From the IMG/VR virus record IMGVR_UViG_3300038312_000327, positions 1 to 64,000 of that record: DNA of 64,000 bases, one strand, 5' to 3'. Under the pieces are notes generated by a model. It worked only from the letters and a program-made list of their open reading frames with translations. It was not told the DNA's origin and made no database searches. This DNA comes from a virus (lineage: Duplodnaviria > Caudoviricetes). This document shows positions 1 through 56,116 of the stretch, piece by piece. Positions within the stretch are counted from its first letter, which is position 1, and each line of letters begins with the position of its first letter. The position numbers and the translations under genes are program-made.

Positions 1-75
1 GGGCGTTTAGCTCAGCTGGTTCAGAGCATCTGCCTTACAAGCAGAGGGTCGGCGGTTCGAATCCGTCAACGCCCA
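1..75 (+). tRNA. trnV: tRNA-Val (anticodon TAC), prophage integration target
   Basis: Acceptor stem GGGCGTT/AACGCCC, D arm, anticodon arm CTGCC-TTACAA-GCAG, T loop GGTTCGAATCC. Confidence 0.97.
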
Positions 76-76
76 C
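33..76 (+). repeat. attL core (3' half of tRNA-Val)
   Basis: CCTTACAAGCAGAGGGTCGGCGGTTCGAATCCGTCAACGCCCAC identical to 56896-56939. Confidence 0.97.
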
Positions 77-112
77 CGAGTTAAAAAGCTGTTTTACAGC
101 AAACTAAAACAT

Positions 113-284: not shown

Positions 285-1508
285 ATGGCAACTTTCAAAC
301 CGGTTGTGTTTACAACCAAAAATCATATTAAATCAGACGGCACTACGAATTTAAAAATACGTGTTTATCACAATAAACAATCGCAGTACATCCCTACCCC
401 ATATTATATTGAACCCGGATTTATGAATCCTGATGGGAATATCTCATCATTTTATCCTGATGCCGATATGCTAAATTACGAATTAGGGGAGATCATGCAA
501 TTACACAAAAAGAATTTCCTTCAATTGGGATCATCCCGAACATTTAAAATGTCATGTTCTGAACTCAAGGAAATACTTGTGAGCATGTCAGAGCAAAATA
601 CGGAATTTATCGATTTCGTAGATTTTTCGAATAAAGTAATAAATAACACAGTAAAAGAAAAAACAGCTTCATGGTACCGGTGTTCTCTTGAATCATTCAA
701 GAAATTTTGGAAAAACAACAAAATAAATGCCTGTGATATCACTGCAAAAAAGATGCGGGAGTATAAAGACTATTTGGAGAAAAATGGCATGCAGCCGGGG
801 GGCATCAATAACTACATGAGAGGTATTCGTTCCTTATTCAATAAATGCAAGGATCATCACAATAAAGATGATTATGATATTATCCTTATTCCGAATAAGC
901 CATTTAAAAATGTGGATATTCCTGAATACCGTAGGAGAAGGAAGAACATACCTATTGAAACGGTAAAACAGATCAGAGACGGGAATTTTGATACAGAGCG
1001 GGAGAATTTCGCCAAAGATATGTTCATGATAATGTTCTACATGATGGGAATCAATGTGAATGATTTGTTTAATCTAAAACCTCCTATTTATGGCAGGATC
1101 GAATATGAACGTTCAAAAACAAACACCCGGGACAATATCTATAAGTTCCCATTATCTATTAAAATCGAACCGGAATTAAAGGTTTTGATTGACAATTACA
1201 GTAGCGATGGATTCCTTTCCAATATAAAAACAAAGTACACTTGTTCTTATAATTTCATGAAAGCAATCAACATCGGGCTAAAGAGGATCAGCGAAGAATT
1301 GAACATACCAAAAATCACCACCAACTGGGCGCGTCACTCATGGGCCAGTATCGCCCGGAACAAAGCCAAAGTTCCCAAAGCCGATGTGGATTTTTGTCTT
1401 GGCCACGTGAATAATGACTACAAGATGGCGGATATTTATATAGATATTGATTATGGCATCTGCGATGATGCAAATCGCAAGGTTCTCAATATGTTACTTG
1501 ATAAATAA
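285..1508 (+). CDS. int: Tyrosine integrase (Bacteroidota type with arm-binding and SAM-like domains)
   Basis: GINVNDL, ARHSWAS, LGH and IY catalytic motifs; adjacent to attL. Confidence 0.95.
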   Translation: MATFKPVVFTTKNHIKSDGTTNLKIRVYHNKQSQYIPTPYYIEPGFMNPDGNISSFYPDADMLNYELGEIMQLHKKNFLQLGSSRTFKMSCSELKEILVSMSEQNTEFIDFVDFSNKVINNTVKEKTASWYRCSLESFKKFWKNNKINACDITAKKMREYKDYLEKNGMQPGGINNYMRGIRSLFNKCKDHHNKDDYDIILIPNKPFKNVDIPEYRRRRKNIPIETVKQIRDGNFDTERENFAKDMFMIMFYMMGINVNDLFNLKPPIYGRIEYERSKTNTRDNIYKFPLSIKIEPELKVLIDNYSSDGFLSNIKTKYTCSYNFMKAINIGLKRISEELNIPKITTNWARHSWASIARNKAKVPKADVDFCLGHVNNDYKMADIYIDIDYGICDDANRKVLNMLLDK

Positions 1509-4342: not shown

Positions 4343-4373
4343 AATTCAATAACTATTTAAAACAATTGCAACA

Positions 4374-13749: not shown

Positions 13750-13834
13750 TTCGACTTAGTTTTAAATAGTTATTAATCAATAATGCAAATATAGCTAAAA
13801 ACCTCACCCCCTTTATATTTTACAATAAAAATAT

Positions 13835-29882: not shown

Positions 29883-30074
29883 TCATTTATCTTCTTCAAA
29901 ATTCAGCGTGAGTTTTACATTATCATGAATGATTATCAATCGGGCGGATATACTCGTCTCAGTAGTGTGGCAAAGCACTTTTTGGCCATCCATTATCCAA
30001 TTGTCAATAAGTCTATTGAGTCCGTTTTTGAGTTTGTTCTTCGAAACCCGGCCGTGAATGGTTTTTACTGTCAT
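29883..30074 (-). CDS. Hypothetical protein, antirepressor operon
   Basis: ATGA-coupled to upstream ORF. Confidence 0.6.
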   Translation of the reverse strand: MTVKTIHGRVSKNKLKNGLNRLIDNWIMDGQKVLCHTTETSISARLIIIHDNVKLTLNFEEDK

Positions 30075-30307
30075 TTTGAGCCTCCTTCCATCTTTGGGAG
30101 TGGTGAATCGAAATATAACTCGTTCCAGTGTTCATTACCTATTAATGCTGAAATATGTCCCGCCGTATCATCAAGATTGGTCTCAATTTCATCAACATGC
30201 TTTTCCAGTGAAACATCCGACAATTTTATAGATGATGCATATTTCAAGTAGCAAGCCTTTATCGCTTTCAATTGCTTAAGGTGCTCAATCATTGCCTCAG
30301 TATTCAT
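30071..30307 (-). CDS. Hypothetical protein, antirepressor operon
   Basis: Start re-placed at ATGA overlap (MNTEAM..). Confidence 0.6.
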   Translation of the reverse strand: MNTEAMIEHLKQLKAIKACYLKYASSIKLSDVSLEKHVDEIETNLDDTAGHISALIGNEHWNELYFDSPLPKMEGGSK

Positions 30308-30465
30308 AATTTGCCTCCTTTCGCATTTACCATTTCCATGCACATGTTGCGGAAAAAAGAATCTAGTGAGCTGATGAATCTGTCAGGATCTGCGATATGA
30401 CGTCCGGCAAGTTCAAAAATCCCTTTGGCGTCACTGACCATGGTTATCTTGGTTTTGCTTTTCAT
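30304..30465 (-). CDS. Hypothetical protein, antirepressor operon
   Basis: Start re-placed at ATGA overlap with antirepressor stop (MKSKTK..). Confidence 0.55.
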   Translation of the reverse strand: MKSKTKITMVSDAKGIFELAGRHIADPDRFISSLDSFFRNMCMEMVNAKGGKL

Positions 30466-31304
30466 ATCCGGCCCCCTTTCCGCAATTGGTGAAGAAAAGC
30501 TCGACCTTTCTCGGTCCAAACCATCGATTGTTGCGTTTCAACATTACCTGTATGACGATTAACATATCTTGAAACACGCATATCTGTATAGTCCTTATCC
30601 TGATATTTTGAATAAAGAAACCACTGACCAGATTGAAAAAATTGAATCCCCGCTTCTTTAAGTTTCTTGTTTAAGGTTTTTGCACTCAAACCAAAATCTT
30701 TTGCTATTTGTGTTGTAGTGAATGTAGATGTTGATTGCAAAACCTCGTCAGTATATTCAGCTTTTGGAACTAAAACTTTGATTTCTTCTTTCTGAATTTC
30801 ATTTTCTCCCTGAAGTATCTGGATTGCTTGTTTGTGTCTCTCCAAAGTTCTTTGAGCAACTTGTAATGCACGAGCCATTATTAAATCTGAAGATTCAAAA
30901 TCAAGAGCAACATTACCGGTTGTCATTAATATTTTTATCTGGTCATTTGTCCAGATAGCGAATGCCGGGGATAGCCAGCGAGCAAACTCGATGGCAACGT
31001 CTTCATGGAACCATGTACCTGGATTTGCACCACCTGCCTGAGTTTTAACTAATTTCTCAAAGTGTGATTTTCTCACTTTGCTTAATTCTTCAAGAAATGT
31101 TTTAGATGTGGGCAATCTTAACCAGTCAACTGGTCGTTTCCCAAATGTTTTTGCCATCTGTGTGGCATTTACCATAACATCGTCACCTTTAGAAAAAGTA
31201 ACTTTTGAGCCTTCATAGGTTAAAACAATGCTCGTTTCGTGAGCGGACGTACTTCGACTGTTACTATTGTTCGCAATCGTCGCAATGTTTGTGTTGTTAA
31301 GCAT
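30462..31304 (-). CDS. KilA-N + ANT/KilAC phage antirepressor-like protein
   Basis: VNATQMAK..GTWFHEDVAIEFARWLSP; C-terminal TTTQIAKDFG..WTEKGR. Confidence 0.9.
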   Translation of the reverse strand: MLNNTNIATIANNSNSRSTSAHETSIVLTYEGSKVTFSKGDDVMVNATQMAKTFGKRPVDWLRLPTSKTFLEELSKVRKSHFEKLVKTQAGGANPGTWFHEDVAIEFARWLSPAFAIWTNDQIKILMTTGNVALDFESSDLIMARALQVAQRTLERHKQAIQILQGENEIQKEEIKVLVPKAEYTDEVLQSTSTFTTTQIAKDFGLSAKTLNKKLKEAGIQFFQSGQWFLYSKYQDKDYTDMRVSRYVNRHTGNVETQQSMVWTEKGRAFLHQLRKGGRI

Positions 31305-31356
31305 TTACACAAAATTTTAATAAGTAACGATTTTGAGAAGTGTGGAAATAAAAAGA

Positions 31357-31434
31357 GCGATCCTGCACTTCCCGTTGCTTAACACCTCAAGGGCTGCGGG
31401 GCCATTAAGCCTCCACACGGGGTTACAGAATCGC
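31357..31434 (-). ncRNA. Candidate C4/CI-like antisense RNA (78 nt)
   Basis: 11-bp closing stem, inner CCCGU/ACGGG stem, one hairpin, and an unpaired loop complementary to upstream and downstream boxes. Confidence 0.5.
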
Positions 31435-31542
31435 AATTAAATTTTGACGTAATAACTATTTAAAACAAAAACAGCCCGCCAATATGGTGAGCCGAACGCC
31501 TTGCAATTCTAATATTCTCACCCTTGAGTATGTTAAGCGTTA

Positions 31543-31573
31543 CAAATATCAGAATATTTTTTTAATCTACAAA
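31543..31573 (-). promoter_or_regulatory. Promoter of the antirepressor cassette
   Basis: TTTG-N19-GATATTTG on the minus strand (one mismatch to consensus). Confidence 0.6.
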
Positions 31574-31608
31574 ATAAAAATGACTATTTTTGCGAAAAAC
31601 ATAATATC

Positions 31609-32061
31609 ATGGGATTATTTTTCAATAACTACGAAAAAAAGCGGAAGCAGGCTATCGCGAAAGTGGAATTTCCGAGACATAAAAGGATTTTAGAGGATAG
31701 TATCAGTCTGATCAAATCAACCCAGAATTTAAGCACATTGATAAACCGGCATGAAATAGCACAAGAGGAATATTCGTGGATAAAAAGCCAAATGAATGCC
31801 GGTGTCCCGATTTACTTCAAATCTAACGGGTATTTTCCTGCCGAATTGAAGGAGTACGCAAATGTAAATATAGTCCGGATCGCAGATGCCGAATACGCAA
31901 AGTATGCAGCGAAAAAGGGAACATTGAAAACCGATAAAGCGAAAGAAAATCTACACGATAAATATACGAATGTTTTAAATGATTGCTTATTTGCTTTACT
32001 TACCGCTAAAAACCAAAAAGAATGTATCTCTGAAATTGCAGGGCTAATTACTAAACTATAA
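31609..32061 (+). CDS. Hypothetical moron protein
   Basis: 150-aa ORF preceded by TATTTTTG (31585-31592) and followed by a terminator. Confidence 0.7.
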   Translation: MGLFFNNYEKKRKQAIAKVEFPRHKRILEDSISLIKSTQNLSTLINRHEIAQEEYSWIKSQMNAGVPIYFKSNGYFPAELKEYANVNIVRIADAEYAKYAAKKGTLKTDKAKENLHDKYTNVLNDCLFALLTAKNQKECISEIAGLITKL

Positions 32062-32084
32062 AAAAATAGCCGAAAAATTACGTA

Positions 32085-32109
32085 GAGCCGGATCATTATG
32101 ATCCGGCTC
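32085..32109. terminator. Palindromic terminator
   Basis: GAGCCGGATCA-tta-TGATCCGGCTC followed by TTTT. Confidence 0.75.
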
Positions 32110-32264
32110 TTTTATGGGCGTGCAGGGAAACCTGAAAACTTCGAAAAAAGAGATTAAGCGATGATGTGCTTTCAAAGCACCCCATATAGATCACGAACCC
32201 TTACTGCTAATAACCCATCAAAAGAACAACCGCGTAACTCTAAGTTACCCCCTTCCGCAGGCAA

Positions 32265-34186
32265 ATCGAGTAGGAGGAAAACGAAGTAGTTTTCTTCCTA
32301 CTTTCGTTTTCCGACCTCTCACACCACCGTACGTACGGTTCTCGTATACGGCGGTTCCTTAACATTTCACTCTAACCGTTTTATAATAATCCGAGAAGAA
32401 AACGTAACCGGCTTTTCTTAAACGCTCGTCAGTAACTGTTCGGCTAAGGATAAAACTATTGGCTACATGCCAATAGCCCTTTCTGGTATTTGCCCACTCA
32501 TATGCCTTGTATCTGTTGATACCCAGCTTAACAAGATTAGCTACCTTGGTTCTGATCCGTTTCCATTGTTTCCATATCACCATACGTAGCCTTCGACGCA
32601 ACCAGGCATCCGTTGTTGTGAGTAACGTTTTAATGTCTGCCAGTTTGAAGTACTGCACCCAACCTGTTATATACTGGTTTAGTGCTGTCTTCCTGCACTC
32701 ATTCCCCCATCCGTTGCTTCGGGATGTAAGTTCTCTAATTCGAGCTTTCATCTTTTCCACACTTTTGGAGTGAACCCTCAGCCTGCATTCTCCCTTGTAT
32801 CGGTAAAAACTATAGCCAAGGAATTGGATATCCCTGATGTAGGCAACTTTCGTTTTGTTACGATTGACTTTCAGGAAGAGTTTCTTCTCAATGAACGAGA
32901 TAATGCTCTCCATCACTCTTTCGGCACTTCGCCTACTCTTGCACAGTATTACCAGATCATCCGCATAGCGAACGAACTTGTGTCCCCGTTTTTCGAGTTC
33001 CCTGTCCAGCTCACCCAGAAGGATATTTCCCAAAAGAGGACTTAATGGTCCTCCTTGCGGAACTCCCTCATGGCTCTCTTCGAAACAGACTCCATCTTTC
33101 ACTCCTGCATTGAGATACTTATGTATAAGTGAAACCACTCTCCCGTCCTTGATAGTACGGGATAAGACCTCTATCAGTTTGTTATGATGTACGGTATCGA
33201 AGAAACGCTCCAGATCCATATCTACGGCGTAGATGTAACCCTCGTTGATATACTGTTGACATTTTCTGAGGGCTCCGTGTGTTGAGCGTCTGGGACGGAA
33301 CCCATAGCTATGGTCACTGAATTCAGGTTCATAGACCTGAGACAGCTTCTGTGCAATGCCCTGCTGGATAACCCGATCTACTACTGTGGGGATACCCAGC
33401 TGGCGCTGCTTCCCGTCTTCTTTGGGGATGTATACCCTTCGTGTCGGATTGGGGCGATACTTGCCCCCCAGAATGGACCCGATCAATACATCCTTGTTCC
33501 CGACAAGATAATCTTTCAATGATTCAACCTCCATCTTGTCTATACCTGCTGCGCCATGGTTGCTCTTTACCCGTTTGTAGGCAGCGTTAAGGTTGGAAGG
33601 TGAAAGGATGTCTTCCAGCAATCCATTCTCTTTACGGTGTTCATGTCCGGTGAGGTTGTTTTCAGTTATCCATAGGAAAGTCTGCCCTGTCGCATGGCTT
33701 TCGGATGCCGTCCTATTATTCTGCGCTACAGGTCTCTGATATATAGAGATTTTCTGCTTTCGTCCTTTCATAACGGTAACTTTCATTGACTGCTCGACCA
33801 TTAAGGTTCAGCCCTTCCCATATCCGGTCGTGATGTGGTACTATGGCTTCTGCTGACTTCTCACGATGAACTTGTTTTGACCATGCTTCATACTCCGTTT
33901 CCGCATGTTCGTGAGACCTCCCGCGGTAAGGCAGTTAACTTTCATTCCATGTCCCCGCCATATTTACACCCCGACGTCCGTGTAATCTTTGGACTTTGAC
34001 TTGTTTTGCAGTCTCGTCCCGACGGGTATGCCTGATATGATTCGTGTCCCTCGGGGCGGAACTTTGCCTTAAGCTTCCTTCAGATTCCGCTTCGCAACGG
34101 ACACCCTTGCCCTCGGCTAATGGTTGGCGATCACAAACCCCCATAGTGGACTTTCACCACCAAGTTAACTGCCATGCACGGCACAC
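32265..34186 (-). mobile_element. Class IIC group II intron
   Basis: 5' GTGTG at 34186 right after a stem-loop plus T run; domain V AACCGCCGTATACGAGAACCGTACGTACGGTGGTGTGAGAGG with CGC triad; domain VI ending ACTCGAT at 32265. Confidence 0.9.
32359..33801 (-). CDS. ltrA: Group II intron reverse transcriptase/maturase, no endonuclease domain (start possibly 33771)
   Basis: RQLGIPTVVDR, GVPQGGPLSPLL, VRYADD, domain X. Confidence 0.95.
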   Translation of the reverse strand: MVEQSMKVTVMKGRKQKISIYQRPVAQNNRTASESHATGQTFLWITENNLTGHEHRKENGLLEDILSPSNLNAAYKRVKSNHGAAGIDKMEVESLKDYLVGNKDVLIGSILGGKYRPNPTRRVYIPKEDGKQRQLGIPTVVDRVIQQGIAQKLSQVYEPEFSDHSYGFRPRRSTHGALRKCQQYINEGYIYAVDMDLERFFDTVHHNKLIEVLSRTIKDGRVVSLIHKYLNAGVKDGVCFEESHEGVPQGGPLSPLLGNILLGELDRELEKRGHKFVRYADDLVILCKSRRSAERVMESIISFIEKKLFLKVNRNKTKVAYIRDIQFLGYSFYRYKGECRLRVHSKSVEKMKARIRELTSRSNGWGNECRKTALNQYITGWVQYFKLADIKTLLTTTDAWLRRRLRMVIWKQWKRIRTKVANLVKLGINRYKAYEWANTRKGYWHVANSFILSRTVTDERLRKAGYVFFSDYYKTVRVKC

Positions 34187-52055: not shown

Positions 52056-52075
52056 TTTATGAAAGTTTTAAATAG

Positions 52076-52357
52076 TTATTTTCTTAATGCTTCGTCTATA
52101 ACTTTTTCTGCCAAATTGAGGCTATGATTGATGTGATCGTTAATACTGCCGCGTTGTGTCGTATTCCAATAATCAACGATAGATATTAATGCTTCGAGCA
52201 TTCTGGGTGCTGTTGCTATGAGTTGAGCATTTGCTTTTGCTTCATCGTAACTCCACCCTGATACACTGTTAGTTATTTTACATTGATACGGCATTGAAAC
52301 TATTGAAGTTCCACCTGAAACAACCCATTCACCTTTTGTTCCTTTAAATCTTTCCAT
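52076..52357 (-). CDS. Hypothetical protein
   Basis: Start re-placed (MERFKGTKGEW); ANAQLIATAP motif. Confidence 0.65.
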   Translation of the reverse strand: MERFKGTKGEWVVSGGTSIVSMPYQCKITNSVSGWSYDEAKANAQLIATAPRMLEALISIVDYWNTTQRGSINDHINHSLNLAEKVIDEALRK

Positions 52358-53303: not shown

Positions 53304-53315
53304 TTTGATTTGTCT

Positions 53316-53618
53316 TTAAATAGTTATAAGTGATTCTTTAAGTTGCTCTAGTTTCGTTTCAGCGGTTTTTAATTCCGCATTTACTTCTGTGTAGTATTCT
53401 TCAGTTTCGTAAGGCCTTGTTAATTTGTAATTCAAGATCCACAACTGACGTAATAACTCCACGATTTCATTATCATCAATTTTGCTGAGTACTATGCGGA
53501 ATTGATTTTTTTGAGATTCTGCTTTTTTTTGATTCTGCTTGTATCCATAATCATCCATCTGCCAATACCAGTCGAAAGAGGAGATTATAGTTAGTGCTTC
53601 TTTAATTAATTCCTCCAT
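53316..53618 (-). CDS. Hypothetical protein
   Basis: Early operon. Confidence 0.6.
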   Translation of the reverse strand: MEELIKEALTIISSFDWYWQMDDYGYKQNQKKAESQKNQFRIVLSKIDDNEIVELLRQLWILNYKLTRPYETEEYYTEVNAELKTAETKLEQLKESLITI

Positions 53619-54082: not shown

Positions 54083-54127
54083 TAAAGCGAGTTGGATTTT
54101 GTATGCTTAACACCTCGACAACGCTTT
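54083..54127 (-). ncRNA. Candidate regulatory RNA element in the early transcript
   Basis: AAAGCG/CGCUUU hairpin carrying complements of boxes at 111-124, 1616-1632 and 1690-1702. Confidence 0.4.
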
Positions 54128-55155: not shown

Positions 55156-55210
55156 CTTTGTAATGTTTAAAATAGTTATACTTCGTGTTCCCTGTTTTAA
55201 ATAGTTATTG

Positions 55211-55396: not shown

Positions 55397-56116
55397 ATGT
55401 CTATAAATCAAGAACTAAAAAAGATCATATCTGAAATAAAATACAATTTCGAGATAAATCAAGCTGAGATAGCTGATAAACTAGAGGTTACGCCTACTTA
55501 TTTATCAGATATGATTAACGGTAGAGTTCCCTTTTCAGACAGTATAAAGATCAAAATATATGAAGTTTTCAAAATAGATATCAGAGAAAATACGAACAAT
55601 CTTCTTATTGACGAATTAAACTACGATTTGATCGATACCGAAGAAAAATACAAAAAAGCTATTGCGGCTGGTTTAAAGATGTTACCTGAAGTAGATTTTA
55701 TATTTTCAGCTGGTCAAAAGGCATTGACAGCTAATACAGATACAACGGTTAGATTTTGGCACTTGCCAGATTGTGAGGATTGTGAAGCAATTGCAAGAAT
55801 GGCTGGAAATTCAATGATGCCGACCTTACCTCCTGGATGTCAGTTGGCATTAAAAAGATATGGATATGACATTACCAGGCCAAACACTATCGCATTTGGT
55901 AATATGTACGGAATAGTTGTAGAGGACCCATCGACGGGCCTATGGCATGGACATATTAAAGTGTTGAGACGTCATAGAGATCCTGAATTGGCAAAGAAGT
56001 ACTGGATTGCTCATTCGATAAATACAGCTGAGTATGATGATTTCGATATTGATTTAACCTTGGTGCGCGGATTGTGGGTTGTAAAACAGCATGTGGTTAC
56101 AAACGTATTATTATAG
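55397..56116 (+). CDS. CI/LexA-like repressor (HTH + S24 peptidase-like domain)
   Basis: QAEIADKLEVTPTYLSDM HTH; GNSMMP. Confidence 0.85.
   Translation: MSINQELKKIISEIKYNFEINQAEIADKLEVTPTYLSDMINGRVPFSDSIKIKIYEVFKIDIRENTNNLLIDELNYDLIDTEEKYKKAIAAGLKMLPEVDFIFSAGQKALTANTDTTVRFWHLPDCEDCEAIARMAGNSMMPTLPPGCQLALKRYGYDITRPNTIAFGNMYGIVVEDPSTGLWHGHIKVLRRHRDPELAKKYWIAHSINTAEYDDFDIDLTLVRGLWVVKQHVVTNVLL

Follow-up and report, generated by a model that had tools for sequence, protein, structure and literature searches.

The leader of an antirepressor-type gene in a phage from the IMG/VR collection (record IMGVR_UViG_3300038312_000327; Duplodnaviria, Caudoviricetes) probably carries a self-contained RNA immunity cassette, which would keep the gene silent in the manner of the c4 RNA of phages P1 and P7 and the CI RNA of phage P4. 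The stretch that we analysed, called the window below, is the first 64 kb of the 75.8-kb record, which is rated complete, and its source is a temperate Bacteroidota-type phage. The cassette is encoded on the minus strand together with the gene, here called ant. At its centre is a structured RNA element of 78 nucleotides (nt) that exposes a sequence, a', complementary both to a site at the predicted 5' end of the same transcript (a1) and to a site at the start of ant (a2) (Table 1). The structure of the element, the position of the promoter, two terminator-like signals and the covariation of the three sites are the directly supported parts of this model.

Table 1. Features of the ant leader and of its surroundings in the window.
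Feature	Position	Strand	Basis or remark
Promoter, Bacteroidota-type: -33 TTTG 31573-31570, 19-nt spacer, -7 box GATATTTG 31550-31543	31543-31573	-	sequence read
a1, GCUUAACAUACUCAAGGG, target site at the predicted transcript 5' end, complementary to a'	31521-31538	-	
H1, candidate antiterminator hairpin: GGUGAG 31522-31517 with CUCACC 31491-31486	31486-31522	-	predicted fold
T1, intrinsic-terminator-like hairpin 31494-31472 with abutting U-run 31471-31462	31462-31494	-	~45-75 nt past predicted start
78-nt structured RNA element	31357-31434	-	fold; model R1 78.1 bits, E = 3e-18
a', CCCUUGAGGUGUUAAGCA, single-stranded	31376-31393	-	
T2, U-run straight after stem P1, UCUUUUUAUUU	31346-31356	-	sequence read
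a2, UGCUUAACA 31303-31295, weaker pairing on to 31289	31289-31304	-	
Antirepressor-type gene (ant), 280 amino acids, KilA-N and KilAC/ANT	30462-31304	-	Pfam ANT 2.3e-25, KilA-N 2.2e-21; PHROG 63 'anti-repressor Ant' 2.3e-31
Small conserved hairpin in codons 19-25: GCUC / loop ACGAAAC / GAGC, ACGU a few bases before	31230-31250	-	
Distal 13-mer, exact copy of the a' complement, TGCTTAACACCTC	54104-54116	+	intergenic gap, leftward early operon
Group II intron reverse transcriptase/maturase open reading frame	32359-33801	-	RVT_1 5e-42, GIIM 5e-19
Group II intron domain V/VI	32265-32356	-	Rfam Intron_gpII, 43 bits
tRNA-Val	1-77		
Tyrosine integrase gene	285-1508		
HTH_3 repressor-like gene	55397-56116	+	

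In the window, a host-type promoter stands 4 nt ahead of a1, in which 2 nt separate the A box GCUUAACA from the B box CUCAAGGG that follows it. Hairpin H1 shares bases with the end of a1 through its 5' arm and with the 5' arm of T1 through its 3' arm. The element itself is closed by an 11-bp stem, P1 (31434-31424 with 31367-31357, two G-U pairs), and contains a second stem, P2 (31421-31417 with 31375-31371), and a hairpin, P3 (31416-31396), with the loop UAAU. Its minimum free energy (MFE) was -35.6 kcal/mol (z = -4.2), and none of 200 shuffled sequences folded as well; the whole leader reached -80.4 kcal/mol (z = -3.9), again with no shuffle as good. Together with the U-run that follows it, P1 reads as a terminator-like structure and may double as an intrinsic terminator (T2). 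An initial annotation, made from the letters of the window, had placed a1, the T1 hairpin, the 78-nt element with its 11-bp stem, a' and an a2 lying on the AUG on the minus strand, and every one of these parts was found at the place given. It had also stated that the element exposes a'; this sequence is indeed single-stranded, but it does not sit in a hairpin loop, being instead the 3' side of the asymmetric internal loop between P3 and P2. The pairing of a' with a1 over 8 + 8 bp and with a2 was recovered by a repeat search, as two perfect 8-nt a1/a' arms and one a'/a2 arm of 15 nt with 87% match. The site a2 starts one base into the antirepressor AUG (31304-31302) and thus overlaps it.

The fold is maintained by compensatory changes throughout a family of related loci. 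In a covariation alignment of 65 distinct sequences, which was fitted to a covariance model and in which the search pattern had imposed part of the invariance, 94% of the cells could pair, compared with 38-48% when the partners were slid by one to three columns. Sixteen of the 20 pairs changed on both sides, and the observed values were reached by none of 500 shuffles. Compensatory changes affected all eight pairs of P1 and all seven of P3. In comparison, P2 (CCCCG/CGGGR) was almost invariant, with a single U-A replacement in one diverged copy. The invariant nucleotides were located in P2, in the junctions and in the UAAU loop, where the search pattern was again responsible for part of the invariance. 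An independent MAFFT/RNAalifold run recovered P1 with eight covarying pairs, and the T-run after P1 was conserved in both family alignments.

The three pairing sites change in concert as well. We collected 58 distinct a' sequences and compared the pairing of each with the leader of its own locus to the pairing of a' from the other loci with that leader. In the upstream region, the own a':a1 duplex had a median of -29.2 kcal/mol, against -13.4 kcal/mol for the a' of other loci, and the own a' was the best in 54 of 58. Downstream, the corresponding values for a':a2 were -17.5 and -12.4 kcal/mol, with the own a' ranking first in 15 loci and among the top five in 33 of 58. The window followed this pattern (a1:a', -29.0 kcal/mol, rank 1 of 58; a':a2, -16.2 kcal/mol, rank 4 of 58). 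There were 100 G-U pairs among the 1178 pairs of the a':a1 duplexes, and the sense strand was more stable than its complement in 53 of the 58 loci. This bias indicates that it is RNA from the ant strand that pairs. The recognition sequence has two parts, an A box with AGCA at its end and, on the 5' side of this, a B box. Among ten near-identical cassettes, the substitutions were concentrated in the B box of about 7 nt, at a1, a' and a2 together, and we read the B box as an address that may be under diversifying selection, as between P1 and P7. A search with the exact a' found one other phage (L028), in which a' is identical, the covarying stems differ and a Bro-N gene follows downstream, and the closest ANT relative (L009) has kept the scaffold with a1, a' and a2 changed together. 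Because the same architecture recurs with different pairing sequences in more than 100 other loci, chance can be excluded as its origin.

In 52 of 52 loci, a box fitting xAnnTTTG ended precisely 4 nt ahead of the a1 GCU; the strict form TAnnTTTG was present in 32 of them and the remainder differed at the first base, while TTTG or TTG was found about 19 nt upstream of this box. The -7 consensus is background on Bacteroides promoters and the start site is predicted from it; the fixed spacing was computed. Given this fixed spacing, a1 should be the 5' end of the RNA. A T1-type hairpin abutting a U-run was found 43-67 nt past a1 in 49 of the 52 loci and formed in all 49 when a1 was blocked. In folds of the nascent RNA, H1 sequestered at least 3 nt of the 5' arm of T1 in 47 of the 49 loci, and its own 5' arm overlapped the a1 duplex in 46. 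Inspection by eye of the window and a few other loci showed no canonical TAnnTTTG between T1 and P1, and for this reason the RNA element probably depends on read-through of T1. At the downstream end, among 47 loci with a copy of the A box, 22 had a2 on the start codon (AUGCU) and 20 had it 9-22 nt upstream of this codon, so that it overlapped the translation start region in 42 of 47.

From these parts we propose the following mechanism. Transcription would start at a1, and the nascent leader would meet in turn T1, the 78-nt RNA with T2, and the a2-bearing start of the antirepressor gene. Transcripts that end at T2, probably trimmed of their a1-containing 5' part, would yield a stable ~80-nt RNA that exposes a'. 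In trans, it may pair with a2 on read-through transcripts and block the initiation of translation, as c4 of P1 does. It may likewise pair with a1 on nascent transcripts, which would prevent H1 and let T1 form, resulting in premature termination and self-limitation as for CI of P4. The hypervariable B box would serve as the address, and each RNA would silence only its own cassette or those of the same type (heteroimmunity). On a full-length transcript that has passed both terminators, a1 could bind a' in cis, so that a2 stays accessible and the gene can be expressed if no free RNA is around. Three observations favour action in trans: the a1/H1/T1 arrangement would be readable only by an a' that already exists, the element appears to end in its own terminator with a' exposed, and the address box seems to turn over fast at three sites. 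Since every primary transcript carries a1, activity in trans would imply either competition or processing of the 5' end, which also holds for c4 and CI. The initial annotation had suggested a c4/CI-like RNA that guards the antirepressor from within the same transcript, and the comparison of loci supports this suggestion through the covariation of the three sites and the scaffold, the promoter (52/52), the a2 position (42/47) and the enrichment of antirepressor domains downstream.

Several findings weigh against this model. The a1 present on every primary transcript binds a' far more strongly than a2 does, and the a':a2 pairing, far weaker than a':a1 across the loci, had no strand bias. Downstream of the element, 11 of the 58 loci had no copy of the A box, with only B-type or no clear copies. 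T1 also formed in the free MFE fold of 32 of the 49 loci, and shuffled controls for the H1/T1 and a1/H1 overlaps reached 68% and 60%, a high background, so the predicted a1/H1/T1 overlap should be regarded as an enrichment and not as proof. About half of the downstream genes were small open reading frames (ORFs) without antirepressor domains or any family. Finally, the discrete RNA of about 80 nt and its processing are deduced from the sequence.

The same elements could be arranged into a leader switch that works purely in cis, without an RNA acting in trans, which we consider unlikely. Its ON state would have a1 and a' joined in a helix, a weakened P1/T2 and a free a2; in its OFF state P1, P2, P3 and T2 would form and a' would mask a2 in cis, the choice being set by a protein, a ligand or the kinetics of transcription. 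One transcript carries the three sites within a span of about 250 nt, and a factor could bind to the invariant nucleotides of P2, of the junctions and of the UAAU loop. In nested MFE folds of the whole leader, the a1:a' helix formed in 48 of 52 loci, was about 13 kcal/mol better on average and excluded P1/P2, an exclusion that is partly forced by the pseudoknot-free algorithm; when a1 was blocked, P1 returned in 51 of 52. A helix of 16-21 bp between a1 and a' within the P2-P3 internal loop would at least need P2 to be open. However, a pairing directed against P1 and hence T2, seen in the MFE fold of the window (31510-31501 with the 5' arm of P1), was rejected as a part of such a switch because it was not conserved (mean -6.4 kcal/mol, compared to -6.8 kcal/mol in shuffles). 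Besides, a' is transcribed after T1, and a cis switch cannot explain why the a1/H1/T1 arrangement is conserved. The fast and coordinated turnover of a 7-nt box at three sites fits specificities in trans and would be hard to achieve by neutral drift, and a U-run after P1 that releases an RNA with an exposed a' fits a small RNA.

A second small RNA might also be involved. In this case the promoter would mostly yield an a1-T1 RNA of about 55-75 nt, a sponge or activator like IsrK or SeqA, and expression would be set by its ratio to the a' RNA and not by attenuation. The well-formed T1, including the loci where it appeared in the free fold, would agree with such an RNA, and a precedent exists in Gifsy-1, where a short terminated IsrK is followed by a C4-like RNA that is processed out of the longer read-through RNA, and IsrK acts in trans on the long isoform (PMC4825925). 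We nevertheless hold this scheme to be quite improbable as a separate explanation. It is compatible with the trans-acting cassette and shares most elements with it, the stability and function of the short RNA are supposition, and the overlap of a1 with H1 suggests that occupancy of a1 is read out at T1. More improbable still, to a degree that we would be surprised to see it hold, is that the repeats are DNA operators for a DNA-binding protein of the phage and that the RNA folds are incidental. This impression could arise because an 8-9-mer occurs three times, close to a promoter and to the start of a gene, in a phage that has HTH regulators elsewhere. However, a' lies within a strongly covarying scaffold, the many G-U pairs of a':a1 and the greater stability of the sense strand are properties of RNA pairing, a1 stands at the RNA 5' end with constant spacing from the -7 box, no regulator gene is conserved in the neighbourhood, and a bipartite pairing of 16-21 bp does not resemble operator half-sites.

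The trans-acting cassette that we favour belongs to a family that is separate from the catalogued ones. A scaffold pattern (CCCCGT, a KTAATR loop and AGCARCGGGA) matched more than 113 IMG/VR contigs among the matches listed, which represent 81 distinct loci. The covariance model of the family, R1, whose seed alignment included the window sequence, had 106 matches in the IMG/VR loci; some of these were diverged copies outside the pattern, and some loci contained two or three copies. The window fits R1 over the full length of the model, with the family signature of CCCCGU, a UAAU loop, a single-stranded address and RCGGG followed by a U-run. On genome contigs, R1 confirmed 60 of 80 loci found with the same scaffold pattern and gave 63 matches in total. 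Nearly all were in Bacteroidota, including Bacteroides, Phocaeicola, Parabacteroides, Odoribacter, Butyricimonas and Alistipes, and further Prevotella, Tannerella, Petrimonas, Proteiniphilum, Draconibacterium, Chitinophagaceae and a freshwater Bacteroidetes metagenome-assembled genome (MAG). Pattern matches in Oscillospiraceae, Nitrospirota and similar taxa failed R1, as chance matches are expected to do. Under strict filters, 8 of 151 sampled Bacteroidales species genomes had an R1 match, which is an underestimate.

In Rfam 15 there was no family for the element, at E <= 10 for the locus (30000-33000) and at E <= 1 for eight homologous loci. The C4 model (RF01695; gathering score 45 bits) did not match the locus or the whole 75.8-kb record at E <= 10, nor did the c4-2 model (RF02944; gathering score 41 bits) match the whole record at this threshold, and neither matched the eight other family loci at E <= 1. 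The initial annotation had seen no sequence identity to the enterobacterial RNAs, and these searches agree with it. ARAGORN detected no tRNA-like gene at the element. No description of the RNA was found in the literature, and the searchable part of the supplementary table of PMC8040213 (200 of 408 files) contained no fitting Bacteroidetes candidate beside antirepressor domains. As judged by these comparisons, the element is an analogue of c4 and CI and not a detectable member of their family; it would form a separate, uncatalogued Bacteroidota family.

In P1 and P7, c4 is a trans-acting RNA that represses Ant (PMC8546580), and in P4 the CI RNA pairs with seqA upstream and seqC downstream, leading to premature termination (PMC4825925). 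The c4 family as catalogued comes from Proteobacteria (PMC2864571). The model of c4-2, which is distantly related to c4 (PMC5737381, Weinberg et al. 2017), matches neither this phage nor the eight family loci, as described above. The immI operon of P1 and P7 (c4 - icd - ant; Rfam C4 RF01695, c4-a1b1 RF03163) is similar to the cassette in that an RNA of about 77-78 nt lies in the leader of an antirepressor operon in the same sense as its targets, with an exposed sequence complementary to a1/b1 upstream and to a2/b2 over the first downstream translation start. Bipartite recognition boxes are common to both, and in both the specificity differs between related phages. The features of C4 that are found here are the 78-nt element with its covarying closing stem between a promoter and an ant gene, and the three covarying sites. 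A further feature of C4 is its maturation by RNase P out of a longer precursor. In contrast, there is no detectable homology in sequence or structure; the antisense of c4 is formed by two hairpin loops whereas a strand of an internal loop takes this part here; the RNA here ends in its own terminator-like stem and U-run, with an extra T1 after a1; and the host phylum is Bacteroidota, in which translation starts lack a Shine-Dalgarno sequence. Like CI of P4 (seqB), the RNA is encoded in the sense direction and would pair with upstream and downstream sites on nascent transcripts of its own operon, with a putative coupling of a1 to H1/T1 here. CI differs in that it controls replication genes and not an antirepressor and is included in the C4 family of Rfam, whereas the RNA here is not; the termination read-out of P4 is known and that of the cassette is predicted. 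The parts follow one another in the same order at IsrK/STnc1160 in the Salmonella prophage Gifsy-1, with a promoter, a short terminated RNA with the seqA-like site, read-through, a C4-like RNA and a regulatory gene (PMC4825925). There, however, IsrK activates translation of the long isoform, the RNA family and the phylum are different, and our system is known from sequence analysis.

Regulation at a nascent leader is also a principle of the plasmids pT181, pIP501 and pAMbeta1, in which a small RNA binds the 5' part of the leader and prevents the antiterminator, so that an intrinsic terminator forms. Those RNAs are cis-encoded on the opposite strand, whereas the regulator here is encoded downstream on the same strand. 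Apparently, the sense-encoded antisense immunity of the cassette is convergent with c4 and CI, with the same logic on an unrelated fold.

The genes placed under the cassette are diverse. Among 47 distinct downstream proteins, 13 had ANT, eight KilA-N, seven Rha, five Bro-N and one P22_AR_N. Only one (L009) of 19 loci with relatives of the KilA-N/ANT protein carried the element. A link of the RNA to this protein was rejected for that reason, and these 19 loci had no Rfam family at the gathering score. We also rejected a conserved divergent regulator gene as in mnt/arc of P22, since 22 divergent ORFs fell into 21 unrelated clusters and 29 loci had none; more generally, no protein-coding neighbour is conserved upstream of the cassette. 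Because the cargo is varied and the upstream neighbours are not conserved, the RNA is a mobile, autonomous cassette, used mostly but not only for antirepressor-type genes. One Chitinophagaceae MAG contained nine copies of the element, and the five copies examined (L143, L147, L165, L171, L180) precede a conserved protein of 69-77 amino acids (MLYPENNQP...DELIATGEAVF...). The cargo of the freshwater Bacteroidetes MAG (L170, L179) is the same type of protein, of about 70-77 amino acids. This suggests that the cassette also serves genes other than classical antirepressors and is perhaps carried by a mobile element in several copies. In six loci (L059, L042, L047, L109, L122, L123), two or three copies of the element were located within about 1 kb. 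Some were too diverged for the pattern, and the diverged ones have an a' that does not end in AGCA; these are tandem cassettes, each apparently followed by a small ORF of its own.

The 3' edge of the mobile unit probably lies within the cargo gene. The small hairpin in codons 19-25 of ant was found in about 26 of 81 loci, and its 4-bp stem covaries. The encoded peptide is ..TSAHET.., in which the codons for His, Glu and Thr (CAC-GAA-ACG) are fixed at synonymous positions, and beyond the hairpin the cargo proteins (KilA-N, Rha and others) diverge. The hairpin probably marks this edge.

In the window, a fourth copy of the address is found at a distance. On the leftward early mRNA the distal 13-mer reads GAGGUGUUAAGCA, in the sense of a', and judging from its sequence it may be able to base-pair with both a1 and a2 in the ant leader, at a distance of 23 kb. 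By our estimate an exact 13-mer would be expected in the window about 0.002 times by chance, and the search for distal copies gave seven matches within two mismatches, compared to 1.2 expected. No fourth copy of the address was found in two other phages of the family. The 13-mer was rejected as a second full element, as R1 finds a single copy in the genome, and its region was rejected as a structured RNA, as neither strand folds better than shuffles.

It is barely known how temperate phages of Bacteroidota, which are the main temperate viruses in the human gut, maintain lysogeny. If our model is true, RNA-only control of antirepressor genes is widespread in these phages. As a broader view, to which we would give somewhat less than an even chance, a programmable RNA immunity may extend throughout the phylum, combining an address of about 7 nt, termination near the 5' end and a block of the start codon into many heteroimmunity types that need no protein repressor, and the copy at 54104-54116 may wire a CI/Cro-type switch to the antirepressor. 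The model makes predictions that can be tested, namely the ends of the RNA, the effects of compensatory mutants and a cross-immunity that tracks the 7-nt box. With a covariance model in hand, the new RNA family can be used for the annotation of gut viromes, and the cassette might provide a natural, compact and re-addressable RNA regulator for Bacteroides genetics.

The RNA cassette and ant form a small minus-strand island within the morphogenesis genes, and the leftward early operon of the phage includes a LuxR-type regulator and RecT. The island also holds a divergent ORF of 150 amino acids (31609-32061, plus strand), which has a perfect -7 box TATTTTTG at 31583-31590; this ORF matched no Pfam or PHROG family and is not kept beside the cassette in other phages. 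A group II intron (32265-33801, minus strand) is located just upstream of the island, with a palindromic terminator at 32084-32110 near it. A plus-strand gene of 69 amino acids (31484-31693) behind an A-rich leader was considered and rejected as coding, as its composition is implausible and it overlaps the 150-amino-acid ORF out of frame; moreover, the copy of the shared motif in L009 has no start codon after it. The motif TTAAAACAAAAACAG(CC) is repeated just upstream of several start codons (4348-4365, 13756-13775, 52065-52080, 53309-53327 and 55193-55209) and is probably an A-rich translation-initiation leader of the phage. Its complement forms the U-run of T1 in the ant leader.

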